Source: an uncultured Ruminococcus sp. (GTDB lineage Bacteria; Bacillota; Clostridia; Oscillospirales; CAG-272). Taken from it: a stretch of 64,000 nucleotides of DNA. How positions within the stretch are numbered: the stretch's first letter is position 1; the number at the start of each line of letters is the position of its first letter. The DNA is taken from positions 12,130 through 76,129 of the forward strand of contig CACYYS010000001.1 of assembly GCA_902778725.1 (NCBI GenBank), given 5' to 3'. Made by a program: the position numbers and the translations under genes. Of the stretch, positions 4,149 to 49,388 are shown one piece after another. Under the pieces are notes generated by a model. The model worked only from the letters and a program-made list of their open reading frames with translations, was not told the origin of the DNA and made no database searches.

Positions 4149-4151
4149 CGG

Positions 4152-34547: not shown

Positions 34548-35189
34548 TCAGGCGTTTTCCCCGTCCGGCTCCCGGCGGTTTGCGATCATCACGCCGGCGT
34601 AGGGGAGGGTGAGGATCCAGTCGCAGAAGATGTGCCACTCGGGGAGCTTGTGGGCGCGGCGGGCGTAATAGATATTGGAGAGATTTTCGTAATTGAGGGT
34701 GACGGTGCGGAGCTGGTTGAAGCTGGAGGGCAGGAGCTGGATCAGCTCGTGCCAGAGGGCGCGGTCCTTCGTCTCGTTATATTTCTGCCGGACCTCCTCG
34801 AGATAGGCGAGGAGCGAGTCGAGCTGCGCGAGGCCGGCGGGGGAGAGCCGGTCGCAGGAGAACATCTCACGGGAGAAGGGGTAGGACTGGATCTTGTGCA
34901 TGGTGCTGGTGGAGTTGGCGACGGTGCCGACCTTGTAGGTATCGAACTCCTTCCACCAGTAGAGGGGCGCGGTGATATCGACGGAGACGAAGATCTGGCG
35001 GATGAATTTGCGATGGTCGGTGCCGGCGGAGCAGAGGCGGGCGGCGAGGGAGAGATCGTTTTCTCCGAGGACGTACTCGCCTTTTTCATTGTAGGCGCTG
35101 TCGCTTTTTGCCCAGGAGTTGAGGGGATTGCGCGCGCCGCGCATCGCGTTCTCAAGGTTCATCACGGAGGTGCGTTCGATCAGGATCAT
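34548..35189 (-). CDS. ThyX-fold (flavin-dependent thymidylate synthase-like) protein lacking the RHR / SxRY motifs
   Basis: DHRKFIRQIFVSVDITAPLYWWKEFDTYKVGTVANSTSTMH aligns by eye with ThyX [39 protein letters not shown]. RHR is replaced by TYK and S-x-RY by S-T-MH. ATGA overlap with the AraC stop. Confidence 0.55.
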   Translation of the reverse strand: MILIERTSVMNLENAMRGARNPLNSWAKSDSAYNEKGEYVLGENDLSLAARLCSAGTDHRKFIRQIFVSVDITAPLYWWKEFDTYKVGTVANSTSTMHKIQSYPFSREMFSCDRLSPAGLAQLDSLLAYLEEVRQKYNETKDRALWHELIQLLPSSFNQLRTVTLNYENLSNIYYARRAHKLPEWHIFCDWILTLPYAGVMIANRREPDGENA

Positions 35190-36028
35190 GGCAGTTCCTT
35201 TCCGGCGTGTTCCGCCTGCTTGGGGGTTTTCCCCGTATATTTCTTATAGATGCGGTAGAAGTGTGAGGTATCGTAAAAGCCGAGGGTCTCGGCGATCAGA
35301 TCGGTGGTCCAGAGGGAGGAGGAGAGCAGCTCCTGGGCCTTGCGGACGCGGAGACGGTTGCGGTATTCGGAGGGGGAGAGCCCGCCGGAGAACTGCTTGA
35401 AGCGGGCGCGGAAATAGCTCTCGCTGAGGAAGCACATCCGCGCGAGTTCGGCGACGGAGAGGTCGGCGGCGGGGTTGTCCTCGAGGGCGCGGACGGCGGG
35501 GGTGAGATTCTCGAATCCGAGGCGGGCGCTGTCCGCGGAGAGGGAGGAGAAGAGGCGGGCGAAGACGGAGAAGCAGCAGCTCTTCATCTCCGCGGGGGTG
35601 GAGGAGGGACGGATGAAGCAGTCGAACGCCGCCCGGAAGGCGCGTCCGAGGGAGCCGGAGCGGTCCTCGGAGAAGGCGAGGGGAGAGTCGTTTACTACAA
35701 GGCGGCAGCCGGCGGCGTCGGTGAGGCGGAAGCGGATGCAGAAGGTCTGCCCCGTCCCGCCGCCGGCGTGCGTTTCCGAGAGGTAGGGGGTCTTTTCCGC
35801 GATGAAGACGGCGCCGGGGGAGGAGAGGGAGACGACGGGGTCCTTTTTTCCGGGAACGTAGATGTTTTTCCCGCCCTCCGCGGTATAGGAGAGGATGTTC
35901 TCCCCTCTGCCGCCGGAGAGGTAGTTGTTGCGGTTGCCGTCCTCCCAGCGGCGGGAGACGGCCGCCGCCGCCCCGACGTTGAAGTCGGTGCGCGCCAGCT
36001 CGGCGAAGGTGAGGGCCCGTTCCGTCAT
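35186..36028 (-). CDS. AraC-family transcriptional regulator
   Basis: Only the last 280 aa of the 1224-aa track ORF are credible. ATG at 36028 has a GAGGTG RBS. C-terminal LSVAELARMCFLSESYFRARFKQFSGGLSPSEYRNRLRVRKAQELL...IAETLGFYDTSHFYRIYKKYTGKTP. Confidence 0.85.
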   Translation of the reverse strand: MTERALTFAELARTDFNVGAAAAVSRRWEDGNRNNYLSGGRGENILSYTAEGGKNIYVPGKKDPVVSLSSPGAVFIAEKTPYLSETHAGGGTGQTFCIRFRLTDAAGCRLVVNDSPLAFSEDRSGSLGRAFRAAFDCFIRPSSTPAEMKSCCFSVFARLFSSLSADSARLGFENLTPAVRALEDNPAADLSVAELARMCFLSESYFRARFKQFSGGLSPSEYRNRLRVRKAQELLSSSLWTTDLIAETLGFYDTSHFYRIYKKYTGKTPKQAEHAGKELP

Positions 36029-36145
36029 AGTCACCTCGTGAAAACCGTCGATTTTTACAATCGCATCATCATTTATTACATTGTAAACCATTTTGCGCCG
36101 GATTACAATAGGATTGCTAAATTTTCCTTTCAGGAGGTATATGCT

Positions 36146-37540
36146 TTGCTTTCTTATCGGATCAAGCTCGGCATCGTTCCGGTCAGGCGCGACGTAACGC
36201 CCCGTCCCGGCATCTTCAACTGGGAGGTGGCGGAGCGCCGCGGCCGCGAGCTGACCGAGACGGTCATCGCCCGGTACGGCGACGAACAGACGGAATTTGT
36301 CGATATCAAGGGGATCAACCCGGTCGACGTCATGATCAACGAGGACGACGCGCAGAAGATCATCGAGCGCTTTACGGCGGAGAAGGTGGACGGCGTGTTT
36401 TTCATCAACGCGAACTTCGGCAACGAGGAGGCGATCGGCGTGGTCGCCGCGGCGCTGAAGGTCCCGGTCTGCATCTGGGCGCCGCTCGACGACCGGTTCG
36501 ACGCGGACGGGATGCGCTATACAGACAGCCAGTGCGGCATCTTCGGCGTCAGCCGGATGCTGCAGCGGCGCAACGTCCCCTTCTCTCATATCGAGACCTG
36601 CCGGGTGGATTCCCCGGCGTTCGCGCGGGATCTCACCCGCTTTGAGAACGTCGTATGCATGGTCCGCAACTTCCGCACGCTGAAGGTGGCGCAGGTCGGG
36701 ATGCGTCCGCGTCCCTTCTGCTCGGTCATCTTCAACGAGGGGGAGCTGATGCGCAAGTTCGACATCCGCACCATCCCGATCAACCTCGCCGTCATCATCG
36801 ACAAGTACAACCGGATCCTCGAGACGAGAAAAGAGGAGCTGGAGAAGGGCAAGGAGCTGCTCCTCTCCCGCTACGAGATGGACGATCTCACCCCCCCGCT
36901 GCTCGAGAAGGTCTACGCCTTTGTGCTGCTTTACGAGGAGATCTTTGAGGAGTACGGCGTCGGCGCGATCTCGGCGGAGTGCTGGACGGCGATGCAGCTC
37001 GCGGTTGGCGCGATGCCCTGCACGGCGTACAGCGTGCTGGCGGACAAGGGGTATCTGATCAGCTGCGAGAGCGATATGCACGCGGTGATCACGATGGTTC
37101 TGCTCGCCTCCGCCACGAGAGGGAGGAAGATCCCCTTCCTCGGTGAGTTCACCGTCCGCCATCCGGAGAACGAGAACGCCGAGCTGCTCTGGCACTGCGG
37201 GCCGTTCGCCTATTCCCTGAAGGCGCCGGACAGCAAGGCGAAGAACGTCAATATGCGCCAGTGGTTCCGTGTGAATGACGGCTCCTACACCGTCGCGCGC
37301 TTTGAGGAGGACAACGGCGTTTACCGCATCCTCAACGGCACGGCGAAGGCGACGACCGGCCCCTACACCTTCGGCACCTACCTCTGGGCGGAGTTCGACG
37401 GACTCAAGCGCTGGGAGGACAAGCTGATCGACGGGCCCTACATCCACCACTGTGTGGAGGTGGAGGGGGACGTCACCGCCGAGATCGCGGAGTTTTGCCG
37501 CTACATCCCCATGCTGGAAAACGATCCGATGGATCGCTGA
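36146..37540 (+). CDS. L-fucose/L-arabinose isomerase-family sugar isomerase
   Basis: No ATG in frame. TTG at 36146 lies 8 nt after AGGAGG (36132-36137). YLISCESDMHAVITMVLL and the overall layout resemble FucI-family proteins. A promoter-like TTGTAA-17-TACAAT is at 36081-36109. Confidence 0.65.
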   Translation: MLSYRIKLGIVPVRRDVTPRPGIFNWEVAERRGRELTETVIARYGDEQTEFVDIKGINPVDVMINEDDAQKIIERFTAEKVDGVFFINANFGNEEAIGVVAAALKVPVCIWAPLDDRFDADGMRYTDSQCGIFGVSRMLQRRNVPFSHIETCRVDSPAFARDLTRFENVVCMVRNFRTLKVAQVGMRPRPFCSVIFNEGELMRKFDIRTIPINLAVIIDKYNRILETRKEELEKGKELLLSRYEMDDLTPPLLEKVYAFVLLYEEIFEEYGVGAISAECWTAMQLAVGAMPCTAYSVLADKGYLISCESDMHAVITMVLLASATRGRKIPFLGEFTVRHPENENAELLWHCGPFAYSLKAPDSKAKNVNMRQWFRVNDGSYTVARFEEDNGVYRILNGTAKATTGPYTFGTYLWAEFDGLKRWEDKLIDGPYIHHCVEVEGDVTAEIAEFCRYIPMLENDPMDR

Positions 37541-37561
37541 CAAATAGAAAAGGAGAAAAAA

Positions 37562-38986
37562 ATGACAGATTTCCTCTTTACCCAGGTGCTGACGGAGCTT
37601 GAGGACGCCGTCGGCCGTGAGAACTGTTCCACCCGGGACATCGACAAGCTGACCCACGGGGTAGACTACTTCTGGCTCTCCCGTATGTGGGCGGACCGCG
37701 GGCTGCGGATGCCGGAGGCGGACTACATCGTCTCCCCGAAGAACGCACAGGAGACCTCCGCGGTCCTCAAGATCGCAAACTACTACAAGATCCCCGTCAC
37801 CACCTGGGGCGGCGGCGGCGGAACGCAGGGGGGCGCCATCCCCGTGGCGGGCGGCATCCTGCTCGATACCAAGCGGATGGACGCGATCACCGATTTCAAC
37901 GAAAAGGGGATGTACATCGAGTGCGGCGCCGGCACGATCTACAAGCACCTTGAGTGGAAGGCGAACGAGCGCGGCTACGCGACGATGCACTATCCGTCCT
38001 CCCTCACCTGCTCCACGGTCGGCGGGTTCCTCGCCCACCGCGGCATCGGCGTCGTCTCCACCAAGTACGGCAAGATCGACGATATGGTCCTGCAGATGGA
38101 GGTCGTCCTGCCGGACGGCACGATCATCCACACCTCTCCCGCGCCCAAGCACGCGGCGGGTCCGGACCTCAACCAGATCTTCATCGGCTCCGAGGGCACG
38201 CTCGGCGTGATGACCAAGGCCCAGATGCGCATCTACGATATGCCGGAGGAGCGGCGCTTCCGCGGCTTCCTCTTCCGCAATATGTCCGACGCGTTCGACG
38301 CGGCGCGCGAGCTTCTGCAGAAGTTCAAGCCCAGCGTGATGCGTCTCTACGACCCGGCGGAGACCGCCTCGCTGATCAAAAAGATCGTCGGCGTGGAGCG
38401 CGACGGCGCCTTCATGAACGTGGCGATCGAGGGCGTCTCCGAGATGGTCGAGCTCGAGCAGAAGATCCTGCTCTCCACCTTTGAGAAGTACGGCGCCGAG
38501 GACCTCGGCAGCGAGTACGGGGAAAAATGGTGGAAGGAGAAGATCACCTTCTTCTATCCCGGCCATATGATGGATCTGCCGCAGATGTTCGGCACGATGG
38601 ACACCATCGCCCCCTACGGCAAGATCGAGGAGATCTACTGGGCGATGAAAAAGGCGATCGAAACGAACTTCCCGCAGGCGAAGTTCATCGCGCATTTCTC
38701 CCACTGGTACGAGTGGGGCGCGATGGTCTACGACCGCTTCATCGTGGACGGCAAGGACGTTCCGACCGACCCGAAGGAGGCGATGCGCCTGCACAACGCG
38801 ATCTGGAACTGCGGCGTCCGCACGGCGATCGCGCACGGGGGCGTCGTCAACGACCATCACGGCGTGGGCATCAAGCTCGGCCGCCTAATGAAGGAGCAGT
38901 ACGGCCCCGCGATGAAGGTCTTTGAGGGACTGAAGAGAGAGCTGGATCCGAACGGGATCATGAACCCGTTCAAGCTCGGACTGTAA
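37562..38986 (+). CDS. FAD-binding oxidoreductase (GlcD / FAD-linked oxidase family)
   Basis: IVSPKNAQETSAVLKIANYYKIPVTTWGGGGGTQGG...STVGGFLAHRGIGVVSTKYG...HHGVGIKLGRLM. Confidence 0.85.
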   Translation: MTDFLFTQVLTELEDAVGRENCSTRDIDKLTHGVDYFWLSRMWADRGLRMPEADYIVSPKNAQETSAVLKIANYYKIPVTTWGGGGGTQGGAIPVAGGILLDTKRMDAITDFNEKGMYIECGAGTIYKHLEWKANERGYATMHYPSSLTCSTVGGFLAHRGIGVVSTKYGKIDDMVLQMEVVLPDGTIIHTSPAPKHAAGPDLNQIFIGSEGTLGVMTKAQMRIYDMPEERRFRGFLFRNMSDAFDAARELLQKFKPSVMRLYDPAETASLIKKIVGVERDGAFMNVAIEGVSEMVELEQKILLSTFEKYGAEDLGSEYGEKWWKEKITFFYPGHMMDLPQMFGTMDTIAPYGKIEEIYWAMKKAIETNFPQAKFIAHFSHWYEWGAMVYDRFIVDGKDVPTDPKEAMRLHNAIWNCGVRTAIAHGGVVNDHHGVGIKLGRLMKEQYGPAMKVFEGLKRELDPNGIMNPFKLGL

Positions 38987-38998
38987 GGAGGAACGAGA

Positions 38999-40090
38999 AT
39001 GTCATTTTCAAGTAAATGCCGCGAAACGGCGGACGCCTGCCGTTTCTGCTGGATGTGCCGCCATATCTGCCCGATCGGCAACACGACGGGGCAGGAGAGG
39101 AACACCGCCCGCGCCCGCGCCCTTTCCCTCTCGCTTGTCGGGAGAGGGGCGGCGGAGCTGAAGGGCGACCTTGTGCAGAACGTCTATGAGTGCGCGCTCT
39201 GCCGCGCCTGCACCGAGGACTGCAAGACCGGATGGGATCCGGTGATCTTCACCCGGGAGGCGCGCCGCGAGGCGGTGCTCGCGGGCGAGGAGCCGGAGGC
39301 CGTCCGTCTCCTGCTGGAGACCTACGGGAAGACCGGCCATATCTACGGCGCGGAGCCGAAGAACAAGGCGTTTTCCGACGCCGCGCGCCGTCACGCCGCA
39401 AAGACCGACACCCTCCTTTACCTCGGCAGCGACGTCCGGCATTTCGCCAAGGACAAGGCCCTCGGCGCGATCGCGCTCCTCGAGCGGGCAAAGGTCTCCT
39501 TCACCGTGCTTGAGAAGGAGCCGGAGAGCGGACGGCAGCTTTCCTTCCTCTGCGGGGACACCAAGGAGACCCGCGACGCGATGCAGGCGGCGGCGGAGCT
39601 GTACTCCGGCTATAAGACCGTCGTCTTCTACGATCCGGAGGATGCCCGCACCGCAAAGCAGGACGCGCCGGAGCTCGGGATCACCGCTAAGGCGAAGCTT
39701 GTGACCTTCCCCGCGTATCTCGAGACCCTGATCGGCAAAAAGCTGAAGGTCAAAAAGAGCGAAAACGTCTACACCTTCCAGGATCCGGCGGCGCTTGCCC
39801 GCGCGCTGGAGGACGTTTCCTCCGCCCGGGCGGTCCTCGCCGCCTGCGGAGAACTGAAAGAGATGCTCCTCGCGGGCAAAGAGACGGTGCTGGCGGGCGA
39901 TCTGATCCTGGATCGCTACCTGCACGAGGTCGTGCTCGGGATGGCGAGGAGGAGATGGGACGAGGCCGTCAACATGGGCGCAAGGACCCTCGTTACGGCG
40001 GACACCGCCGAATATCTCGCCCTCTCGGCGACAAAGCCGAAGGGCGTGCGCGTCATCACGCTGGAGGAGGCTGTTGCGGAATGCTTGTAA
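38999..40090 (+). CDS. (Fe-S)-binding protein with two ferredoxin-type cluster motifs
   Basis: CRFCWMCRHICP and CALCRACTEDC (CxxCxxCxxxC). Sits beside the FAD oxidase, as in GlcD/GlcF-like pairs. Confidence 0.7.
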   Translation: MSFSSKCRETADACRFCWMCRHICPIGNTTGQERNTARARALSLSLVGRGAAELKGDLVQNVYECALCRACTEDCKTGWDPVIFTREARREAVLAGEEPEAVRLLLETYGKTGHIYGAEPKNKAFSDAARRHAAKTDTLLYLGSDVRHFAKDKALGAIALLERAKVSFTVLEKEPESGRQLSFLCGDTKETRDAMQAAAELYSGYKTVVFYDPEDARTAKQDAPELGITAKAKLVTFPAYLETLIGKKLKVKKSENVYTFQDPAALARALEDVSSARAVLAACGELKEMLLAGKETVLAGDLILDRYLHEVVLGMARRRWDEAVNMGARTLVTADTAEYLALSATKPKGVRVITLEEAVAECL

Positions 40091-40914
40091 GTCTGAGAGA
40101 GATCCTTTGCGAAGCGGAAAAGGGCGGCTACGCCGTCCCCGCCTTCAACGTCTATAATATGGAAACGGTCATGGGGGTCCTGCACGCCGCGGAGGCGGCC
40201 CGCTCCCCCGTGATCATGCAGATCTATTCCCGTCTCTTCGATTCGGAGAACGGGAAATTCGCGGGCGCGAACATCCTCGCCGCCGCAAAGTACGCGACCG
40301 TCCCCGTCGCCTTCCACCTCGACCACGGCGCCACCGAGGCGCAGGTCATCGGCGCGCTGGACGCCGGCGCGACCGGCATCATGATCGACGCGTCCAAACT
40401 GGAGTTTGACGACAACGTCGCTGTGACGCGAAAGATCGTCGCGCGCTGCAAGGCGGCGGGCGATATCGCCGTCGAGGGGGAGCTCGGCCACGTCGGGACC
40501 ACCAAGGAGGAGATCGGCGACAACTATACCGAGCCGGAGGCCGCCCGCCGCTTTGTGGAAAAGACGGGGGTCGAAGCGCTCGCCGTCGCCGTCGGAACGG
40601 CGCACGGCCGGTACAAAAAGGCGCCCAAGCTGGCGATCGAGCGGACCCGCGAGATCAAAAAAGCGGCCGGCGTCCCGCTTGTGCTGCACGGCGGCAGCGG
40701 CGTGCCGGACGAGGAGATCCGCGCCGCGATCGGAGCGGGGATCCGGAAGGTGAACTTCTCCACCGACCTCTGCTACTCCTTCCTCGATACCGTCTTTGCG
40801 ACCAGCCGCGAGTGGGTCGGCATCGACCTCTTCATGCGGGACGCCGTCAAGGCGGTCGAGGATTTTGCGCTCTCGAAGATCGCGGTTCTCGGCTCCGCCG
40901 GACAGGCAAAATAA
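40081..40914 (+). CDS. Class II ketose-bisphosphate aldolase family protein (IolJ/GatY-like)
   Basis: ORF trimmed to the ATG at 40081 (MLVSLREILCEAEKGGYAVPAFNVYN). LDHG, GELGHVG, VGTAHG and VLHGGSG motifs. Confidence 0.85.
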   Translation: MLVSLREILCEAEKGGYAVPAFNVYNMETVMGVLHAAEAARSPVIMQIYSRLFDSENGKFAGANILAAAKYATVPVAFHLDHGATEAQVIGALDAGATGIMIDASKLEFDDNVAVTRKIVARCKAAGDIAVEGELGHVGTTKEEIGDNYTEPEAARRFVEKTGVEALAVAVGTAHGRYKKAPKLAIERTREIKKAAGVPLVLHGGSGVPDEEIRAAIGAGIRKVNFSTDLCYSFLDTVFATSREWVGIDLFMRDAVKAVEDFALSKIAVLGSAGQAK

Positions 40915-40924
40915 GGAGAGGGAT

Positions 40925-41833
40925 ATGGCAAGGATCGTCGGCATCGGCGCAAACGTACACGACACCCTGATCACCCTGCCCGCCTACCCCGCGGAGGATA
41001 CCAAGCTCCGCGCGGAGAGGAGCATGGAGGTCGGGGGCGGCCCCTGCGGCACCGCGCTCGTCGCGGCGGCCAAGCTCGGCGCGGACTGCGCCAGGCTCGG
41101 GCAGCTCGCGCTCGACCGGGGCGGGGATTTTCTCGCCGCGGATATGGCGCGCTGGGGCGTGGACGTCTCCCTGGCAAAGAGGAGGGAAGGGACCTCCTTC
41201 TCCTCCTGGATCTGGCTCTCGGCGGCGTCGGCGACGCGCACCTGCGTCTTTGACCGCGGCACCCTCCCGCCGCTCATCCTCGACCCCGCGCAGAAGGAGG
41301 CGATCGCCTCGGCGGATCTCCTGCTGCTCGACGGCAACGAGATGGCGGCGGCGATCGAGGGGGCGAAGATCGCCCGGGAAAACGGCGTCAAGGTCCTGCT
41401 CGACGCGGGCGGCCGCTACGCGGGGATCGAAGAGCTGCTCCCGCTCGTCGACCTTCTGATCCCGAGCGAGGAGTTCGCCCTCGGGATCACGGGGAAAACC
41501 TCGGTGCGCGAGGCGGCGAGTGAGCTTCTTCGCCGTTTTGCGCCCGAGACGCTCGTGATCACCTGCGGCAAGGAGGGCGGCGTCATCCTCGATAAAAAGG
41601 GATACCGCTCCTACCGGGCGTACAAGGTCAAGGCGGCGGATACCAACGGCGCGGGCGACGTTTTCCACGGCGCGTACGCCTACGCCTTTACCGCGGGCAG
41701 AGGAGGAGCGGACGAGTGCGCCGCCTTCGCCTCCGCCTGCTCGGCTCTCAAATGCACCGGCGCGGGCGGCGCCCGGCAAAGCACGCCGACCCTGCCCGAG
41801 CTGGAAAAATTTATCAAGGAGAATGAAAGATGA
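40925..41833 (+). CDS. PfkB-family carbohydrate kinase (IolC-like)
   Basis: ORF trimmed to the ATG at 40925 (MARIVGIG) after AAGGAGAGGG. DTNGAGDVFHGAY motif. Confidence 0.85.
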   Translation: MARIVGIGANVHDTLITLPAYPAEDTKLRAERSMEVGGGPCGTALVAAAKLGADCARLGQLALDRGGDFLAADMARWGVDVSLAKRREGTSFSSWIWLSAASATRTCVFDRGTLPPLILDPAQKEAIASADLLLLDGNEMAAAIEGAKIARENGVKVLLDAGGRYAGIEELLPLVDLLIPSEEFALGITGKTSVREAASELLRRFAPETLVITCGKEGGVILDKKGYRSYRAYKVKAADTNGAGDVFHGAYAYAFTAGRGGADECAAFASACSALKCTGAGGARQSTPTLPELEKFIKENER

Positions 41834-42618
41834 AACTCAAAAAGCACTGGAACGGTCAGTACGGCAAGTCCGCGTTCATCAAAAACGGCACCCTCGGCAT
41901 GATCGAGCTGGATATGCTCAAGCTCCGCGAGGGCGAGCAGAAGCATTATTATGAAACGGATAACAAGGAGTACGGTCTGATCATCCTCGGCGGCAAATGC
42001 TCGGTCGTCGGAGAGGGATTCGCCTTTGAGCATATCGGCAAGCGGAAAAACGTCTTCGACGGGCCCGCCGCCTCCGTCTATCTGCCGAGAAACTGCGACT
42101 TCACCGTGACGGCGGAGGAGGGCGAGGTCGAGATCGCCGTCGCCAAATGCCCGGCGGAAAAGGATTTCCCGCCCAAACTCGTCAACCCCGAGGACGTCAT
42201 CATCAAGCACCTCGGCAAGGACGGCTGGAAGAGGGAAGCGCACTTCAACATCGACGAACGGCTCGACGCCAACCTGATCTATATCGGAGAGGCGTGGACC
42301 GAGGGCGGGATGTGGTCCTCCTATCCGCCGCATAAGCACGACGACAACAATATGCCGGAGGAGTCCTTCATGGAGGAGCTGTACTTCTACCGCTTCGACA
42401 AGCCCACCGGCTTCGGCATCCAGCGCGTCTACACCAAGGAGGGGGACATCGACGAGACCTACACCGTCAAAAACGACGACGCCGTCGAGATCCCGCGCGG
42501 TTATCACCCCTGCACCTGCGCGCCGGGCTATAAGCTCTACTACCTCTGGATCATGGCGGGCAAGATCCGCGGCTTCAACATGACCACGGACGAAGACCAC
42601 AAGTGGCTGAACAAGTAA
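41830..42618 (+). CDS. 5-deoxy-glucuronate isomerase (IolB) family cupin
   Basis: GMWSSYPPHKHDDNNMPEESFMEELYFYRF...GYHPCTCAPGYKLYYLWIMAG. ATGA overlap with the kinase gene. Confidence 0.75.
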   Translation: MKLKKHWNGQYGKSAFIKNGTLGMIELDMLKLREGEQKHYYETDNKEYGLIILGGKCSVVGEGFAFEHIGKRKNVFDGPAASVYLPRNCDFTVTAEEGEVEIAVAKCPAEKDFPPKLVNPEDVIIKHLGKDGWKREAHFNIDERLDANLIYIGEAWTEGGMWSSYPPHKHDDNNMPEESFMEELYFYRFDKPTGFGIQRVYTKEGDIDETYTVKNDDAVEIPRGYHPCTCAPGYKLYYLWIMAGKIRGFNMTTDEDHKWLNK

Positions 42619-42637
42619 AAGACGAAAGGGCGTTTCG

Positions 42638-44116
42638 ATGAAATACCTTCTCGGCGTTGACTTCGGCGGCGGGTCGTCGAAGGCGACGCTTCTCGCGGAG
42701 GACGGGACGGTCGCGGCGGAGAACGCCGTCGAGTATCCGACCCGCTACCCCGCTCCCGGACAGGTGGAGCAGGACCCGGACGACTGGTACGCCGCCACGG
42801 CGGAGAACGTCCGCGCCCTCATGGAGAAGAGCGGCGTCTCCCCCTCGGAGATCGCCGCGCTCTCCCTCGACGCCGCCACCCATACCGCCGTGCTCTGCGG
42901 GGAGGACTGCCGTCCCCTCCGCCCGGCGATCTATTGGACGGACACCCGCTCCGCGCCGATCGCGGCGCGCCTGCGGGAGGAGTGCGGCGAGCGGATCTTC
43001 TCCCTCGCGCTCTCCCGTCCCGATCCGATCTGGACCCTCCCGCAGCTGATCTGGGTGCGGGAGAACGAGCCGGAGATCTTTTCCGGGATCCGGCACATCT
43101 TCTTTGCAAAGGACTACGTCCGCCACCGCATCACGGGCGACTTTCTTACCGACAGCATCGAGGCGCAGGGCTCCATGCTCTGGGATAACGGCGCCGGCCG
43201 CTGGTCGGAGTTCCTCTGCTCGCTCGCCGGCGTCCCGGCGGCGGTCCTGCCGCGCGTCGTCCGTCCGACCGATCTTGCCGGGACCGTCACGGCGGAGGCG
43301 GCGCGGGAGCTGGGTCTTCCGCAGGGGCTCCCCGTCCTTGCCGGGATGACCGACACGGCGGCGGAGGTCTTTGCTTCCGGCGCCGTCGAACGCGGGAATA
43401 TGACGGTCAAGCTGGCGACCGCCGGCCGGATCTGCGTCATCACCGACCGCGCTTATCCCTCCGATTACCTCATCAACTACTCGCATATCTCCGACGGGCT
43501 CTGGTATCCCGGCACGGCGACCAAGGCATGCGCCTCCTCGCTTCGCTGGTTCCGCGATACCTTCGGGGACGGGACGGACTACCCGGCGCTCGACCGCCTT
43601 GCGGCGGAGACCCCTGCCGGAGCGGACGGTCTGCTCTATCACCCCTATCTCAACGGCGAGCTCACCCCCTACGCCGACCCGCAGCTCTGCGCCTCTTTCA
43701 CCGGCTTCCGCGCCGGGCACACGAAGGGGCACTTTGTGCGCGCGGTGATGGAGGGCGTGGCGCTCTCGCTCCTCGACTGTCTCCGGGCGCTCGACTCCCT
43801 CGGTCTGCCGCGGGACGGCAGGGCCGCCCTGATCGGCGGCGGGGCAAAGAGCCCCCTCTGGCGGCAGATCGTCGCCGACGCGCTCGGGATGGAGCTGGAG
43901 GTCCGCCGCTCAAGCGACTCCTCCCTCGGCTCCGCGATGCTCGCGGGCGTCGCCGCCGGGGTCTGGAACACGCCCGCGGACGCGGCGCGCGCCTGCTCCG
44001 TTACCGTCGCGGCCGCCTCCCCGGATCCCGCCCGCACCGAGCTTTACGCAAGCCTCTTTGAAAAGTATAAGGTCATCCACGACGCGCTCGCGCCCGTTTA
44101 CCGCGGCGCAAGATAA
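42638..44116 (+). CDS. FGGY-family sugar kinase (xylulokinase-like)
   Basis: MKYLLGVDFGGGSSKATL...QDPDDWY...HPYLNGELTPY...GGGAKSPLWRQIVADALG. Confidence 0.85.
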   Translation: MKYLLGVDFGGGSSKATLLAEDGTVAAENAVEYPTRYPAPGQVEQDPDDWYAATAENVRALMEKSGVSPSEIAALSLDAATHTAVLCGEDCRPLRPAIYWTDTRSAPIAARLREECGERIFSLALSRPDPIWTLPQLIWVRENEPEIFSGIRHIFFAKDYVRHRITGDFLTDSIEAQGSMLWDNGAGRWSEFLCSLAGVPAAVLPRVVRPTDLAGTVTAEAARELGLPQGLPVLAGMTDTAAEVFASGAVERGNMTVKLATAGRICVITDRAYPSDYLINYSHISDGLWYPGTATKACASSLRWFRDTFGDGTDYPALDRLAAETPAGADGLLYHPYLNGELTPYADPQLCASFTGFRAGHTKGHFVRAVMEGVALSLLDCLRALDSLGLPRDGRAALIGGGAKSPLWRQIVADALGMELEVRRSSDSSLGSAMLAGVAAGVWNTPADAARACSVTVAAASPDPARTELYASLFEKYKVIHDALAPVYRGAR

Positions 44117-44125
44117 GGAGACGGA

Positions 44126-45493
44126 ATGAAAAAACGGAAGGTCCTCGTCCTTGTCAAGCCGGTCGGCGGAGAGATCACACCCTTTGACGGGGCGGCTCTG
44201 GAAGCCGCCCTTTCCCTTGAGGGGGCGGAGGTCACCGTCCTCTCGATGGCGCCTCCCGCCTCCCGTGACGCGCTTACCGCGCTCACCCGCCTCGGCGATC
44301 TGCGCGTGATCCTCCTCTCCGACCCTCTCTACGCCGGCTCGGACACGCTGGCGACCGCGCGGATCCTCTGCGCGGCGCTCGACCGGATCCCCCATGATCT
44401 GATCTTCTGCGGCCGCCAGTCCACCGACGGGGATACCGCCCAGGTCGGTCCCTGCCTCGCCGCGCTCCGCGGCGTCCCGGCTCTGACCAACGCGATGGAG
44501 ACGCCCGTCCTCACCGGAAAAACGGTCTCGGTCCGCACCCGCTTCGGCAGGGAGAAGGCGCCTTTGCCCGCTCTCCTGACCTTCGAGCGGTTCACGGTGC
44601 TCCGCGCTCCCTCCATCTTCTCCCGCGCGCGGGAGATCGAGCTCTGGGACAACAAAACGGTCGGCGCGGATCCCGCCCTCTGCGGGCTGGAGGGCTCTCC
44701 CACCCGCGTCCTCGAGGCAAAGGAAAACGAGGGAGGAAGACGCTCCTGCCGCTTCATCGCCCCGGAGGAGCTGCCCGCTCTCCTCAAAGAGCTTTCGGGG
44801 AGAGGGGCAAAAGAGGAGATCTGGCCCGAGGCGGAGCGCAAGCTCCCCCATATCGCCGTGGTCGGCGAGCGGCCGTACCGCCGCGCCGCCGCCGTCGCGG
44901 AGCGTGTTTCGGTGATCCGGGAGACGGAGCCCGAGGCGATTTTGCGGGAGGTGGAGCGCCTCGCTCCCTCCGCCGTCCTCTTTCCCGCCGATCTCTGGGG
45001 CAGGCGCACCGCGCCCGCTCTGCAGGCGCGCCTCGGCTGCGGCCTCTGCGCCGACTGCACCGACCTGAAAACCGACGGCAGGACTCTCTTCCTTTACCGC
45101 CCTGCCCGCTCCGGCAACGTGATCGCAAAGATCGTCTCCGCCGGGCTCCCGCTCGCTACCGTCCGCTGCCCGGAGGCCTCCGGCGACCTGATCGTCGCCG
45201 CCGGCCGGGGTGTTTCCGGGGAGCTTGACCGCGTCCAGGCCTTTTCCGACTCGCTCGGCGCCGAGCTCTGCTGCTCCCGCCCCCTCGTCGACGACGGGCT
45301 CCTTCCTTACGAGCGGCAGGTCGGGCTCACCGGCCGCACCGTTACCCCCTCCGTTTACCTCGCCATCGGGATCTCCGGCGCCGTCCGCCATACCTGCGCG
45401 ATCGAGAACGCGGGAACGGTCGTCGCCTGGAACCCCGACCGCTCCGCCCGCATCTTCGACTGCGCCGACTACGGGATCGCCGCGCCGTTTTGA
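44126..45493 (+). CDS. Fused electron-transfer flavoprotein: EtfB-like N-half plus EtfA-like C-half in one 455-aa polypeptide
   Basis: N-half VLVKPV...AALEAAL...LLSDPLYAGSDTLATARIL...CGRQSTDGDTAQVGPCLA is EtfB-like. C-terminus QVGLTGRTVTPSVYLAIGISGAVRHTCAIENAGTVVAWNPDRSARIFDCADYGI is the EtfA FAD-domain signature. Confidence 0.75.
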   Translation: MKKRKVLVLVKPVGGEITPFDGAALEAALSLEGAEVTVLSMAPPASRDALTALTRLGDLRVILLSDPLYAGSDTLATARILCAALDRIPHDLIFCGRQSTDGDTAQVGPCLAALRGVPALTNAMETPVLTGKTVSVRTRFGREKAPLPALLTFERFTVLRAPSIFSRAREIELWDNKTVGADPALCGLEGSPTRVLEAKENEGGRRSCRFIAPEELPALLKELSGRGAKEEIWPEAERKLPHIAVVGERPYRRAAAVAERVSVIRETEPEAILREVERLAPSAVLFPADLWGRRTAPALQARLGCGLCADCTDLKTDGRTLFLYRPARSGNVIAKIVSAGLPLATVRCPEASGDLIVAAGRGVSGELDRVQAFSDSLGAELCCSRPLVDDGLLPYERQVGLTGRTVTPSVYLAIGISGAVRHTCAIENAGTVVAWNPDRSARIFDCADYGIAAPF

Positions 45494-45509
45494 AGGAAAC
45501 GGGGGAACG

Positions 45510-45750
45510 CCTTCTTTTCTGAAGAAAAGCAGGCACCTGCTTTTCTAAAGAAAAGTAGGCAAAAGACTTTTTGAAAAGGAAGACAGAGAGCGAACAAACA
45601 GAACAGAGGCCAAAACGCCGGTCGGTAAGTCTGACCGGCGTTTTGTTATGGCAAAAGTCAAAACCCGCAAAGAGAAGGCGTCTCAAACGCGCCGATCCGC
45701 CGCCCCGCGAAAGGAAAAGCCGGCCCGCTTGTGCGGGTCGGCTTTTTTTC
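45510..45750 (+). repeat. Modular hairpin intergenic repeat, diverged copy E
   Basis: CTTCTTTTCTGAAGAAAAGCAGG, GCTTTTCTAAAGAAAAGTAGGCAAAAGACTTTTTGAA, AAAACGCCGGTCggtaagtctGACCGGCGTTTT and AAAGCCGGCCCGCttgtGCGGGTCGGCTTTTTTT. The last hairpin serves as a bidirectional terminator. Confidence 0.75.
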
Positions 45751-47670
45751 TCAGATCTGATTTCCGGCAAACTGGGTCATGTAGAGCTCGTAGTATTTTC
45801 CCTTCTTTTCGAGCAGCTCCTCGTGGTTTCCGGTCTCGATGACGCGGCCGTGATCCATCACGACGATCTTGTCTGCGTCCCGCACGGTGGAGAGCCGGTG
45901 CGCGATGATCAGGCTCGTGCGGTTTGCCATCAGCCGGACCATCGCGTCCTGGATCCGCTTTTCCGTCCGGGTATCGACGGAGGAGGTCGCCTCGTCGAGG
46001 ATCAGGATCTTCGGGTCGGCGAGGACGGCGCGGGCGATGGCGAGCAGCTGCCGCTCGCCCTGCGAGAGGGAGGCGCCGGCGTGCTTGAGGTAGGTGGCGT
46101 ACTGCTCCGGCAGCCGCTCGATGAAGTAGGCGGAGTTGCTCGCTTCCGCCGCCCGGCGCATCTCCTCCTCGCTCGCTTCCGTGTTCGCGTAGCGGATGTT
46201 CTGCTCGACCGTATCGGAGAAGAGGACGGTATCCTGCAGGACGATCGCGGTGTTTTTGCGCAGGGAGTCGCGGGTGTAGTCGTAGATATCGACGCCGTCG
46301 ATATAGATGTGTCCGGAGTCCGGCGGATAGAAGCGCATGAGGAGGTTGACGACGGTGGTCTTGCCGCTGCCGGTCGCGCCGACGAGGGCGATCTTCTCTC
46401 CCGGGCGGACGTCGAGATCGAAGTCAAAGAGGACCTGCTTGCCGGGGATGTAGGAGAAGTTGACCTTCTCAAAGCGGATGTCGCCGCGGATCTTTTCCAT
46501 CGGTTTTTCCCCGCGGTTATCCTCGTCCGGCTGATCCATCAGCTCGAACACGCGCTCCGCGCCGGCGATCGCCGTCTGGACCGAGCCGTAGAGCTGGGCG
46601 ATCTCGTTGATCGGGCGGGAGAACTGCTTTGCGTAGATGATGAAGGCGGAGATCGTGCCGATCGTGATCATCCCCTTGAGGGCGAAGAACCCGCCGAACG
46701 CCGCCACGATGACAAAGCCGATGTTGGAGATGCAGTTCATCACGGGGCCCATCGAGCCGCCGAGGATGTCCGCCTTGATCCCGACGGTGCGCAGCTCGTC
46801 GGAGGCGGCGTTGAATTCCGCGATCACGTCGTCTTCCTTGTTATAGGCGACGGTGGAGCGGAACCCGGTGATCATCTCCTCCGCGTGGCCGTTGAGGGCG
46901 CCGAGGGCGCCGCTGCGGCGGCGGTAGAGCTTGCGCATCACGCCGGAGAGCTTTTTTGTGACAAGGACGGTCAGCACCACCGTCACGAGAGAGATCAGGG
47001 TGAGCTGCCAGCAGTGCCAGAGCATCACGGCGACCGTGCCGACCACGGTCAGCACGCCCGAGACGAGCGAGCCGAGGCTCTGGGAGACCGTGTCGCTGAC
47101 GTTTTCCACGTCGTTGGTCATCCGGCTCATCACGTCGCCGTTCGAGTGGGTGTCGAGATAGGCGATGGGGAGCCGGTCGATCTTTTCAAACAGATCGTGC
47201 CGCATCCGCTTGACGGTCCGTTGGCTGAGATGGGCGGCGGTGAGGGTCTGCGAGAGGGTGAAGAGGACCCGCACGCCGTAGACGGCGGCGAGCAGGATCA
47301 GCGTGCGCGGGAGGGAGTCAAAACTCTTTTCGGAGATGCGGTCGATCGCCGAGCCCTGCAGGGAGGGGGCGATCAGCGCCGTGACGGTCACGGCGATCAC
47401 CGAGAAAAAGAGGAGCAGGATCAGCCCGGACTCGCGCCCGAAGTAGCGCAGCAGCCGCCGGAGCGTCTTTTTGAGATCCTTCGGCTTTTCCACCGCGGCC
47501 GCCATCCGCGCGCCGGGACCGCCGCGGCCTCCGCCCGGCCGACCGCGCAGGTCGACGGTGTTCGTCTTCTGCGGCGCGGCGTCCTTTTTTGCGTAGGAGA
47601 CCTCCTGAGTCGCGCGCCCGGTCTCAAAGCCGCGCGGGAGCGCGGTCTTGTTTTCTCCGTTTTGCGTCAT
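45751..47670 (-). CDS. ABC transporter ATP-binding/permease fusion (type I exporter half-transporter)
   Basis: Six-TM domain plus GATGSGKTT, LSQGERQ and ILILDEATS. ATGA overlap with the upstream paralogue. Confidence 0.9.
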   Translation of the reverse strand: MTQNGENKTALPRGFETGRATQEVSYAKKDAAPQKTNTVDLRGRPGGGRGGPGARMAAAVEKPKDLKKTLRRLLRYFGRESGLILLLFFSVIAVTVTALIAPSLQGSAIDRISEKSFDSLPRTLILLAAVYGVRVLFTLSQTLTAAHLSQRTVKRMRHDLFEKIDRLPIAYLDTHSNGDVMSRMTNDVENVSDTVSQSLGSLVSGVLTVVGTVAVMLWHCWQLTLISLVTVVLTVLVTKKLSGVMRKLYRRRSGALGALNGHAEEMITGFRSTVAYNKEDDVIAEFNAASDELRTVGIKADILGGSMGPVMNCISNIGFVIVAAFGGFFALKGMITIGTISAFIIYAKQFSRPINEIAQLYGSVQTAIAGAERVFELMDQPDEDNRGEKPMEKIRGDIRFEKVNFSYIPGKQVLFDFDLDVRPGEKIALVGATGSGKTTVVNLLMRFYPPDSGHIYIDGVDIYDYTRDSLRKNTAIVLQDTVLFSDTVEQNIRYANTEASEEEMRRAAEASNSAYFIERLPEQYATYLKHAGASLSQGERQLLAIARAVLADPKILILDEATSSVDTRTEKRIQDAMVRLMANRTSLIIAHRLSTVRDADKIVVMDHGRVIETGNHEELLEKKGKYYELYMTQFAGNQI

Positions 47671-49388
47671 TGTTCGTCCTCCTTGAGCTGAGAGAAGCAG
47701 ATATCCCGGTAAACGGGGGAAGACTGCATCAGTTCTTCATGCGTGCCGCAGGCGGCGATCCTGCCGTTGTCGAGCACGGCGATCCGGTCGGCGCCGCGCA
47801 CGGAGGCGATCCGCTGCGCGATGATGATCTTGGTCGTGTCCGGCCTCGTCTCCTCCAGCGCGCGGTAGAGCTTCGCTTCCGTCGAGAGGTCGAGGGCGGA
47901 GGTGGAGTCGTCAAAGATCATGATCTCCGCGTCCTTGAGCACGGCGCGGGAGAGCGCGATGCGCTGCTTCTGCCCGCCCGAGAGGGAGTGGCCGCCCTCC
48001 GTCACCTGTGTGTAGTAGCCTTCCGGCGTCGCACAGATGAAGTCGTCCGCCTGGGCGATTTCGGCGGCGCGTTTGATCTCCCACGGATCGGCGCCGTCCT
48101 TGCCCCAGCGGATGTTCGCCTCGATCGGGCGGCAGTAGAGCTCCGCCTTCTGCGGGACCATCGCGATCTTTGCGCGCAGGGCCCCCAGGTCGTAGTCGCG
48201 GACGTTCACTCCGTCGACCAGCACCTCCCCCTCCGTCGCGTCGTAAAAGCGGGGGATCAGATCGATCAGCGTGCTTTTCCCGCTGCCGGTGGAGCCGAGG
48301 ATGGCGACCGTCTCGCCTTTGTTTACCTTCAGATCCACTCCCTCCAGTACCTTTTTCCCGCCGGAGGAGGGATAGGAGAAGCTGACGTTTTTGAATTCGA
48401 TCTCGCCGGTCCTCCCGCCCGTATCGCCGGCAAACCCGCCGTCCCGGATCAGCTCCGGCTCGTCGAGGACCTCGCGGATCCGCTTGGCGGAGGCGAGGGC
48501 GCGGGTGAAGGTCTGGAAGACCATGATCATCGACATCAGACCCATGAGCAGCATCGAAAGATAGGTGATCGCCGCCATGATCGCGCCGGGACGGAGCGGA
48601 AGACCTTCCTCCACGGTGCGTCCGCCGATCCAGATCACCGCGACCACGCAGGCGTTGAGGATGATATTGATGATCGGGGAGAGGAAGGCGAGGATCGTCG
48701 CCACGCGCAGGTTGGTGGAGCAGAGCAGGTCGTTGGCAAGGTCGAAGCGGGAGAGCTCGTGCTCCTCCTTGACGTAGGCTTTGACCACCCGCGCGCCCGC
48801 CACGTTCTCCTGCATGACGTTGTTCACCCCGTCCAGCCGCGCCTGCACGACCCCGAAGAGCGGGGTCGCCATCCGGAGGAAGATCGCGGCGGCGCCGACG
48901 ATCAGCGGCAGGGCGACCGCGGCGACGAGCGCAAAGCGGGGAGACTGCTGATAGAGCATGACGATCCCGCCGAGGAACATCAGCCCGGAGCGCACCACCA
49001 TCCGGATGGACATATGGACCATCTGCTGGACCTGGGTCACGTCGTTGGTAAGGCGGGTGACGAGGGATCCGGTGGAGATCTTGTCGATCTGCCGGAAGGA
49101 GAGGTGCATGATCTTCGAGAAGAGATCCTTGCGCAGGTCGTTTGCATAGTTCTGGGCGGCGAGATTGGCGAACACGCCCGAGAGGATCCCGCAAAGCCCG
49201 CCGAAGAGGACGAGCAGGATCATCCGGATGCCGACGGTCAGGATCAGCTGCATGTTGCCCTCGAGGACGCCGTCGTCGACGATCTTTGCCATCAGGTGGG
49301 GCTGCAGGAGGTCCATAAAGATCTCGCCCATCATCATGATCGGGGCGAGGATGCACCATTTGCGGTATTTTTTGAGGTATTTCAGCAT
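47667..49388 (-). CDS. ABC transporter ATP-binding/permease fusion (partner half-transporter)
   Basis: MLKYLKKYRKWCILAPIMM..., GSTGSGKST, LSGGQKQR, IMIFDDSTS. Confidence 0.9.
   Translation of the reverse strand: MLKYLKKYRKWCILAPIMMMGEIFMDLLQPHLMAKIVDDGVLEGNMQLILTVGIRMILLVLFGGLCGILSGVFANLAAQNYANDLRKDLFSKIMHLSFRQIDKISTGSLVTRLTNDVTQVQQMVHMSIRMVVRSGLMFLGGIVMLYQQSPRFALVAAVALPLIVGAAAIFLRMATPLFGVVQARLDGVNNVMQENVAGARVVKAYVKEEHELSRFDLANDLLCSTNLRVATILAFLSPIINIILNACVVAVIWIGGRTVEEGLPLRPGAIMAAITYLSMLLMGLMSMIMVFQTFTRALASAKRIREVLDEPELIRDGGFAGDTGGRTGEIEFKNVSFSYPSSGGKKVLEGVDLKVNKGETVAILGSTGSGKSTLIDLIPRFYDATEGEVLVDGVNVRDYDLGALRAKIAMVPQKAELYCRPIEANIRWGKDGADPWEIKRAAEIAQADDFICATPEGYYTQVTEGGHSLSGGQKQRIALSRAVLKDAEIMIFDDSTSALDLSTEAKLYRALEETRPDTTKIIIAQRIASVRGADRIAVLDNGRIAACGTHEELMQSSPVYRDICFSQLKEDEQ

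Follow-up and report, generated by a model that had tools for sequence, protein, structure and literature searches.

The window analysed here is a stretch of 64,000 nucleotides (nt) from an uncultured Ruminococcus sp. (contig CACYYS010000001.1). It carries a gene for an AraC-family regulator on the minus strand and, divergent from it, eight plus-strand genes (36146-45493); all nine were confirmed at these coordinates. The eight genes are an AraC-controlled carbohydrate catabolic operon. They are spaced by 21, 12, -10, 10, -4, 19 and 9 nt (negative values are overlaps), each has a GGAG-type Shine-Dalgarno site ahead of it, and an independent gene call on the public contig (ENA ERZ28614116 scaffold_818) gives the same eight products. 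An original prediction, made from the sequence alone, had described the genes as co-oriented, tightly packed and part of a single AraC-linked carbohydrate operon. Coordinates, gaps and Shine-Dalgarno sites agree with the first statement, and synteny kept across related loci (see below) with the second.

The first gene of the operon (36146-37540, +) starts with TTG and encodes a predicted aldose-ketose isomerase of 464 amino acids (aa) with the L-arabinose/L-fucose isomerase fold. It is followed by genes for a flavin adenine dinucleotide (FAD)-linked oxidoreductase of the alkyl-dihydroxyacetone phosphate (DHAP)-synthase-like branch of the VAO/GlcD family (37562-38986, +; 474 aa; FAD_binding_4 and FAD-oxidase_C), hereafter the oxidase, and for a soluble Fe-S protein with the EtfD/HdrD/GlcF/GlpC architecture (38999-40090, +; 363 aa; Fer4_8). 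The next three genes code a class II (metal-dependent) ketose-phosphate aldolase (40081-40914, +; 277 aa; PF01116, F_bP_aldolase 294 bits), a YihV-like, ribokinase-type PfkB sugar kinase that may act as a ketose 1-kinase (40925-41833, +; 302 aa; PfkB Pfam family) and an IolB-family cupin aldose-ketose isomerase (41830-42618, +; 262 aa; KduI/IolB Pfam family, 264 bits), the last one translationally coupled to PfkB by the 4-nt overlap of their genes. The operon closes with a XylB-like FGGY carbohydrate kinase (42638-44116, +; 492 aa; FGGY_N and FGGY_C) and a single-chain electron-transferring flavoprotein (ETF) in which EtfB is fused to EtfA (44126-45493, +; 455 aa; two ETF matches and ETF_alpha). 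Past the last gene lie two weak terminator-like hairpins (45501-45514 and 45621-45639, +), which are consensus matches only. A 1224-aa open reading frame (ORF) on the opposite strand (35186..38860, -) was discarded as a high-GC antisense artefact.

The regulator gene (35186-36028, -; 280 aa) encodes HTH_AraC and HTH_18 domains above the Pfam cut-offs; no NCBIfam equivalog was matched. We prefer its ATG start at 36028, which has a GAGGTG ribosome-binding site, while the public gene call starts 63 nt upstream. The 117-nt spacer between this gene and the isomerase gene (36029-36145) is the divergent promoter/operator region. The overlapping TTGTAA-17-TACAAT promoters reported there on the two strands are real sites, placed face to face at 36081-36109 (+) and 36108-36080 (-), that both arise from the inverted repeat ATTGTAAACC/GGATTACAAT. 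With an extra TACAAT copy 24 nt upstream of the inverted-repeat sites, the boxes are TACAAT (36056-36061), ATTGTA (36080-36085) and TACAAT (36104-36109), and a third promoter-like match is found on the plus strand at 36054-36082. These three are the only promoter-like matches in the 11.7 kb scanned and all fall within the 117-nt spacer, against a mean of 1.2 in shuffled sequence. The spacing of the TACAAT/ATTGTA/TACAAT boxes is also kept between the AraC and isomerase genes of eight related loci, with AraC proteins either 43-50% or 93-94% identical to that of the window; orthologues of the regulator occupy the same position in loci L003-L010 and L075. Since the spacing of the triple motif persists despite AraC divergence to 43-50% identity, the arrangement is not due to chance, and we read the motif as a phylogenetic footprint. 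The divergent -10 boxes may double as AraC operator half-sites, which fits the footprint.

Conservation of the gene set

A pattern scan covering one genome per species found at least 591 genome stretches with a relative of the isomerase, and 80 loci were kept. Co-occurrence was counted in 82 fetched loci, using tblastn and clustering of all ORFs; many of these loci end at contig edges. Most hosts are uncultured Clostridia of gut and rumen, and the nearest locus, from a goat-rumen metagenome-assembled genome, codes an isomerase 97% identical to the one in the window. Carriers include an isolate, bacterium 1xD8-48 (QZDS01000018.1, locus L053), and metagenome-assembled genomes of Acetatifactor, Eisenbergiella and Herbinix. 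A synteny search showed that the gene set recurs in more than 80 loci from uncultured Clostridia, with several arrangements of the genes, and also occurs in Planctomycetia and Paenibacillaceae. Its most conserved unit is the trio of isomerase, PfkB kinase and aldolase, present in 69 of the 82 loci (aldolase and PfkB are each counted 69 times). The oxidase is found in 56 loci, the Fe-S protein in 48, the FGGY kinase in 35, the ETF in 33 and IolB in 31; two genes not carried by the window operon, DUF4867 and aldose 1-epimerase, accompany the set in 29 and 14 loci, respectively. At least 13 trio-bearing loci with largely complete flanks are devoid of IolB. As the trio exists without it, IolB is an accessory component.

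Two gene orders were observed for the complete set. The order of the window (isomerase, oxidase, Fe-S protein, aldolase, PfkB, IolB, optionally epimerase and DUF4867, FGGY kinase, fused ETF) is also found in a Planctomycetia genome. In the second order, isomerase, aldolase and PfkB, optionally followed by epimerase and DUF4867, precede oxidase, Fe-S protein, FGGY kinase, split EtfB/EtfA and IolB. The EtfB-EtfA fusion is shared with loci L004, L005, L090 and L091. A Paenibacillaceae locus has the block oxidase-FeS-aldolase-PfkB-IolB-FGGY-ETF without a gene for an AraA-like isomerase. The Fe-S gene adjoins the oxidase gene wherever the contig continues. Between Clostridia, Planctomycetia and Paenibacillaceae the oxidase keeps 80-83% identity, compared with 44-66% for the remaining proteins of the block (loci L089, L090 and L091). 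An identity of at least 80% across phyla, set against 44-66% for the neighbours, reflects either an unusually strong constraint, and with it an unusually constrained chemistry, or the recent spread of a single gene. Searches with the oxidase return thousands of matches. Its 90% protein cluster includes members of 263-264 aa, one of them named 5-deoxy-glucuronate isomerase, probably an artefact of clustering or gene calling that stems from adjacent genes.

The trio also occurs without oxidase, Fe-S protein, FGGY kinase, ETF and IolB, in two architectures. One has only DUF4867 added. The other (loci L046, L050, L060, L063, L065, L066, L069, L071, L073, L074 and L077) reads Ldh_2 dehydrogenase, 2-keto-3-deoxy-6-phosphogluconate (KDPG)-type aldolase, aldo-keto reductase, optionally a short-chain dehydrogenase/reductase (SDR), glycerate 2-kinase (MOFRL), enolase paralogue (279 bits, slightly below the eno cut-off of 300) and aldehyde dehydrogenase, with PfkB, isomerase and aldolase at the end. 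Such an aldehyde-dehydrogenase set could carry a C3 aldehyde on to phosphoenolpyruvate or pyruvate, which argues for DHAP and an aldehyde of this kind as the products of the trio. In this architecture the aldehyde dehydrogenase best matches succinate semialdehyde dehydrogenase (SSADH) and Ldh_2 best matches sulfolactate dehydrogenase, which would suit sulfoglycolysis. This second operon as a whole fits no pathway that we recognised.

At other loci the set is repeatedly accompanied by a CUT1 ABC transporter together with a histidine kinase/AraC-type response regulator, by a GFO/ThuA pair, by RpiR regulators and by a GH4 alpha-galactosidase-like enzyme, and three clusters enclose a GH31 glycosidase. 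In loci L045, L048 and L043 the oxidase, Fe-S and aldolase genes are separated by insertions that code GH31, a metallophosphoesterase and two large proteins with no Pfam match. The presence of DUF4867 (SftX/SqvB), mutarotase and GH31 in sister loci also speaks for sulfoglycolysis (PMC11968277); against it, the sister-locus GH31 lacks the YihQ RxxW motif and the neighbourhoods showed neither a sulfonate exporter nor a gene for sulfite handling. In several second-order loci a lactate racemase is coded between the Fe-S and FGGY genes (LarA equivalog, 586 bits for a cut-off of 460), and in other loci an Ldh_2 dehydrogenase occupies this slot. A second, LctD-like oxidase, 26-31% identical to that of the window, follows split EtfB/EtfA in loci L014, L020, L031, L032, L035 and L061. 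This LctD-like module, in some cases with lactate racemase, resembles lctBCD. Five of the loci have it joined to the cluster; in L061 it lies upstream on the opposite strand. The racemase, Ldh_2 and LctD-like neighbours fit a lactaldehyde/lactate branch, hence a 6-deoxyhexose substrate, as circumstantial evidence.

Predicted activities of the encoded proteins

The original prediction stands as to a single carbohydrate operon, while its IolJ/IolC, FucI-like and GlcD-like labels need correction. For the isomerase, no Pfam family was matched above its cut-off (Fucose_iso_C, PF02952, reached E=0.05 and 13.7 bits for a cut-off of 29.3), and the only NCBIfam match is the sulfoquinovose isomerase SftI, with 114 bits for a cut-off of 700. 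The AlphaFold2 (AF2) model of the protein, with a predicted local distance difference test score (pLDDT) of 83 and a predicted template modelling score (pTM) of 0.89, was compared with known structures by Foldseek. AraA gave a template modelling score (TM) of 0.81 (E 6e-24), and FucI 0.75 when normalized by query length and 0.60 by target length (E 2e-15). The model thus predicts a three-domain AraA/FucI fold closer to AraA than to FucI: of the FucI-like label, the shared superfamily fold is retained and FucI as the nearest relative is not. Residues E308, E334, H350 and H434/435, invariant in 16 sequences, align to E306, E333, H350 and H450 of E. coli AraA, its Mn-binding and catalytic residues. 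Note that the hhalign scores of the isomerase profile, which has low diversity, against E. coli AraA and FucI are not significant and that the protein is only 14-16% identical to AraA.

Among solved structures, the PfkB kinase is best matched by the sulfofructose kinase YihV (7ag6; 117 bits, 1e-32, 34% identity), with ribokinases at 87 bits and a putative IolC (2qcv) at 63 bits. Its score with the IolC model TIGR04382 is 85.6 bits, for a cut-off of 300. YihV phosphorylates C1 of 6-substituted fructose and holds the sulfonate via K27, N109 and R138 (PMC8006165). This triad reads K-F-N in the kinase of the window. Across 69 PfkB orthologues the position of the YihV arginine is taken by H, N, M, L or F, and never by R; that of the asparagine is F or W in all oxidase-bearing clusters and S in the aldehyde-dehydrogenase architecture. 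Given the K-F-N triad and its F/W-containing, arginine-less orthologues, the pocket is predicted to be uncharged and partly aromatic, and would fit a small neutral C6 group, possibly a methyl. The aldolase exceeds the cut-off of the ketose-bisphosphate aldolase model TIGR00167 (242.6 bits for 215.6). Its best solved relatives are KbaY, YdjI and AgaY, with fructose-bisphosphate aldolases (FBAs) equally close. No family model that it matched is specific to IolJ; all are generic class II models for FBA and tagatose-bisphosphate aldolase (TBA). Of the earlier iolJ/iolC/iolB-like description, the IolB family membership holds, and the canonical IolC/IolJ assignment was downgraded on model scores and co-occurrence.

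IolB reaches 253.5 bits with TIGR04378, above the cut-off of 205, which establishes family membership only, and matches the IolB-like protein 2qjv in the PDB at 2e-49. The FGGY kinase scores 358 bits with the XylB model TIGR01312, just under its cut-off of 380, and 230 bits with PRK15027 for a cut-off of 912; its best solved relatives are xylulokinases. The SftI-like, YihV-like, FBA/TBA-like, IolB and XylB-like relatives of the operon enzymes presumably all act on 3S-configured 2-ketoses.

The best solved relative of the oxidase is alkyl-DHAP synthase (AGPS; 2uuu, 1e-40), followed by the D-lactate dehydrogenase LDHD and by LctD. It aligns only to AGPS residues 138-583, the AGPS N-terminal region of ~130 residues being absent. 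The AGPS motif AH.SH.Y..G is conserved (AHFSHWYEWG, compared with AHISHTYTNG in AGPS), including the catalytic tyrosine of AGPS, and the loop DHHGVG keeps two of the three histidines of the AGPS HHHGVG. In the alignment with LDHD (8jdc) the oxidase has a gap at the second histidine of H-x6-H and DHHG in place of GEHG; this histidine and the glutamate of GEHG are metal ligands of LDHD-type enzymes. The GlcD model TIGR00387 gives 184 bits, for a cut-off of 568. Judged by these motifs, the oxidase appears to be AGPS-like rather than a 2-hydroxyacid enzyme of the GlcD/D-lactate dehydrogenase type. The GlcD-like label is corrected accordingly, and an identity as a GlcD/LctD-type lactate dehydrogenase was downgraded on the active-site motifs.

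The only invariant cysteines of the Fe-S protein, C14, C17, C20, C24, C65, C68, C71 and C75, form two CxxCxxCxxxC motifs; there is no Pfam CCG match and no conserved cysteine beyond residue 75. Its AF2 model (pLDDT 91) retrieves Mycobacterium smegmatis EtfD (TM 0.76 on the query, E 5e-13), then LutA and HdrB. The modelled protein would consist of a 2x[4Fe-4S] ferredoxin domain and two CCG-fold domains that have lost their cysteines. It covers only ~40% of the 742 aa of EtfD, without a membrane part. EtfD is the partner that accepts electrons from ETF. The fused ETF is closest to solved bifurcating ETFs (Bcd-Etf 5ol2, LctC/LctB 7qh2 and CarDE; 103 bits versus 77 bits for non-bifurcating ones). 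It spans residues 33-249 of EtfB and 67-296 of EtfA of the split pair of locus L001 and is ~110 residues shorter. AGPS-type motifs, EtfD-like Fe-S fold and bifurcating-type ETF relatives, LctBC included, support the earlier proposal of one complex, and oxidase, Fe-S protein and ETF plausibly form a single electron-transfer unit. Its substrate class is likely to be a ketone or carbinol beside a phosphate ester and not free 2-hydroxy acids.

A candidate pathway and its alternatives

The best explanation of the operon, held tentatively and at a little less than an even chance, is an Embden-Meyerhof-Parnas (EMP)-like route for a neutral aldose combined with an ETF-linked dehydrogenase/kinase module. 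Substrate and reactions are derived by analogy. The former would most likely be a D-gluco- or D-galacto-configured hexose that carries a small uncharged group at C6, such as a 6-deoxyhexose. The AraA-fold isomerase would convert the aldose to the 2-ketose, the YihV-like PfkB kinase would phosphorylate C1 of the ketose, and the class II aldolase would cleave the resulting ketose-1-phosphate to DHAP plus lactaldehyde or glyceraldehyde as the C3 aldehyde. These core steps follow family chemistry. The system would work like the fucose, rhamnose, sulfo-EMP and lower-inositol routes, and does not qualify as a member of the last two. The L-fucose, L-rhamnose and L-arabinose operons of E. coli (FucIKA, RhaABD, AraBAD with AraC) share with the window a divergent AraC-type regulator, an AraA/FucI-fold isomerase, an FGGY kinase and an aldolase that gives DHAP and an aldehyde. 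The aldolase of the window differs in being of the FBA/TBA type (PF01116) and not of the FucA/RhaD type, and there is a second kinase (PfkB) and a second isomerase. The accessory module is taken as a unit on the basis of co-occurrence, and its reactions are likewise conjectural. IolB could serve as a second aldose-ketose isomerase, whose substrate would be either a related aldose (a C2 epimer) or the aldehyde product. FGGY kinase and two-subunit dehydrogenase (oxidase and Fe-S protein) might cooperate as GlpK/GlpD or EryA/EryB do, the kinase phosphorylating a hydroxyl compound and the dehydrogenase then oxidising the carbinol beside the phosphate ester to a DHAP-type ketone. The hydroxyl compound might be the alditol that matches the sugar, or derive from the C3 fragment. 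Electrons would flow from the flavin to the Fe-S protein and the fused ETF, possibly on to NAD+ together with ferredoxin as in LctBCD, and a larger share of the sugar carbon would enter triose phosphate.

Several observations weigh against this explanation. Oxidations of sugar-phosphate carbinols are usually NAD+-dependent, which leaves the need for a flavin and an ETF unexplained. No transporter or glycosidase gene adjoins the operon in the window. The FGGY kinase is XylB-like and not GlpK-like. Candidatus Limiplasma loci have oxidase and Fe-S protein without FGGY kinase or ETF within 10 kb, and another locus from Candidatus Limiplasma has isomerase, DUF4867, FGGY kinase and IolB without aldolase, PfkB and oxidase. 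As these loci hold one partner without the other, the pairing of kinase and dehydrogenase is not obligatory, and the idea that the FGGY kinase must feed the flavoprotein is weakened. The Paenibacillaceae block without an AraA-like gene favours IolB as the feeder isomerase there. Fusions of DUF4867 to FGGY kinases occur in some cases (PMC11968277), a hint that the latter may act on the ketose itself.

An unlikely alternative, which goes back to the original prediction, is the lower branch of myo-inositol catabolism, in which 5-deoxy-glucuronate would give 2-deoxy-5-keto-gluconate, its 6-phosphate and finally DHAP and malonate semialdehyde, with isomerase, FGGY kinase and flavoprotein/ETF in the place of IolG, IolE and IolD. 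The window resembles the Bacillus subtilis system (IolB, IolC, IolJ) in having cupin isomerase, PfkB kinase and PF01116 aldolase genes side by side; IolB passes its equivalog cut-off, the three genes are contiguous, with PfkB and IolB overlapping, and their order is kept in Planctomycetia and in the Paenibacillaceae block that has no AraA-like gene. The kinase, however, fails the IolC model and is nearer to YihV and ribokinases than to the putative IolC, and IolB is dispensable in the sister loci that keep the trio without it. Furthermore, the window codes no IolA-type aldehyde dehydrogenase or other malonate semialdehyde enzyme, and we know of no chemistry by which the remaining genes would yield 5-deoxy-glucuronate. 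A tblastn search of the 64-kb window with aldehyde dehydrogenase and GFO-family queries gave no match, which confirms for iolG-like (GFO) and iolA-like genes the absence of iolG, iolE, iolD and iolA noted before; IolD and IolE were not searched directly.

Somewhat less probable again is a lactate (or glycolate/glycerate) dehydrogenase of the LctBCD/GlcDF type, which would oxidise a 2-hydroxy acid derived from the aldehyde to pyruvate while the ETF confurcates with ferredoxin onto NAD+. Lactate racemase, Ldh_2 and LctD-like genes in or beside the cluster in several loci, the proximity of the ETF to LctBC and other bifurcating ETFs, the GlcF/GlpC/EtfD architecture of the Fe-S protein and the rank of LDHD as second-best solved relative of the oxidase all point to it. 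VAO/GlcD flavoprotein, Fe-S centres and bifurcating-type ETF are indeed the elements of LctBCD (Acetobacterium woodii) and GlcDEF/GlpABC. In contrast to these systems, the flavoprotein of the window has an AGPS-type active site, with the Tyr/His motifs of AGPS instead of the GEHG glutamate and the H-x6-H ligands, the Fe-S centres reside on a separate soluble protein and the ETF is a shortened single chain. The six loci with an LctD-like oxidase have it in addition to the oxidase of the set, so the two are not equivalent, and the window lacks an aldehyde dehydrogenase to make the acid.

The operon could also house two independent pathways, a reading that we find improbable. One, formed by isomerase and FGGY kinase (with DUF4867 where present), would lead from aldose to ketose and ketose-5/6-phosphate, the other would comprise IolB, PfkB and aldolase, and flavoprotein, Fe-S protein and ETF would be an unrelated dehydrogenase. 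The locus with isomerase, DUF4867, FGGY kinase and IolB alone and the block without an AraA-like gene speak for a division, as does the largest DUF4867 group, which adjoins FucI-family and FGGY genes, with a function left open in the literature (PMC11968277). Against it, the isomerase gene lies next to those for aldolase and PfkB and is found with them much more often than with the FGGY kinase gene, and the whole set travels together between phyla in two gene orders.

About as improbable is that flavoprotein, Fe-S protein and ETF run an undescribed redox reaction on a sugar phosphate, namely AGPS-type enolate/flavin-N5 chemistry on a DHAP-like ketone phosphate. In its fullest version, a 6-deoxyhexose would be converted via the 6-deoxyketose and its 1-phosphate to DHAP and lactaldehyde. 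IolB would then isomerise lactaldehyde to hydroxyacetone, the FGGY kinase would phosphorylate the latter, and the flavoprotein would dehydrogenate hydroxyacetone phosphate and add water to give DHAP, in the way that p-cresol methylhydroxylase acts on its substrate. If this were true, a deoxy sugar would give two triose phosphates without oxygen and, with the step reversed, flavin-based electron bifurcation would gain a high-potential acceptor. We estimate the redox potential of the hydroxylation, from analogous couples, at about -20 to +40 mV, so that the anaerobic reaction would be unfavourable in a fermenter. AGPS itself, which shares with the oxidase the Tyr motif and two of the three loop histidines and is its best solved relative, needs no electron acceptor, unlike the oxidase, which is paired with an Fe-S protein.

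Sulfoglycolysis of the sulfo-EMP2 type, in which sulfoquinovose would pass via sulfofructose and its 1-phosphate to DHAP and sulfolactaldehyde while the redox module handles the sulfonate fragment, is very improbable and was set aside: SftI, YihV and a class II aldolase of sulfo-EMP2 type are the nearest named relatives, but SftI is matched far below its cut-off, the sulfonate triad is absent (arginine in 0 of 69 orthologues), as is the YihQ motif, and no homologue of YihQ, YihS, YihT, YihU, YihO or YihP is found in the window. The three-step logic of sulfo-EMP and sulfo-EMP2 (YihS or SftI-type isomerase, YihV kinase, YihT or class II aldolase) is shared, whereas sulfonate-binding residues are lacking in the kinase of the window and the sister-locus GH31. 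The window is also devoid of a sulfolactaldehyde reductase, dehydrogenase or exporter, and its IolB, FGGY kinase and flavoprotein/Fe-S/ETF have no sulfoglycolysis counterpart.

A non-canonical route, as first proposed, is in line with the literature and with the NCBIfam equivalog cut-offs, by which no characterised pathway matches the operon gene-for-gene; no description of the cluster was found in the literature searched. The truly novel part of the cluster is the AGPS-like flavoprotein together with its EtfD-like partner and ETF. As a distant parallel to the accessory module, the ygc cluster of E. coli also has an AGPS-like flavoprotein (YgcU, 29% identical to the oxidase), an FGGY kinase (YgcE) and an ETF (YgcQR), but it is uncharacterised itself, lacks isomerase, aldolase and PfkB, and its products are only 25-29% identical to those of the window. 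In E. coli K-12 (NC_000913.3, 2892657-2903374; locus L086) this cluster further includes the FixCX-like YgcNO, a KduD-like SDR and a GlpP-like antiterminator. The cluster described here is common in gut and rumen Clostridia that have mostly never been cultured, so that a whole sugar or glycoside niche lacks annotation. It offers a defined entry point to the function of bacterial AGPS-like flavoproteins, YgcU included, and likewise to the DUF4867/FucI-family/FGGY associations left open in the literature. If the ETF unit bifurcates or confurcates, a sugar pathway would be tied directly to ferredoxin-based energy conservation.

Surroundings of the operon

Between pyrR and the AraC gene, a gene for a 213-aa protein without Pfam match (34548-35189, -) has a start that overlaps the AraC stop codon by 4 nt; by eye only, the product looks to us like a ThyX-type thymidylate synthase. 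Downstream, two neighbouring genes for ABC exporters, each with its membrane and ATPase domains fused (45751-49388, -; 639 and 573 aa), converge with the end of the operon. The segment 30000-34000, just upstream of pyrR, has a low GC content (0.46-0.47, compared with ~0.62 elsewhere) and is possibly foreign DNA. It carries a PDDEXK_4 nuclease-family gene, an unannotated gene of 360 aa and a small helix-turn-helix (HTH) gene. A gene for an MFS_2/GPH-type transporter (604 aa) followed by one for a GH36 melibiase-family glycosidase (542 aa) is found at 2334-5780, ~30 kb from the operon, with no link shown between the two regions.

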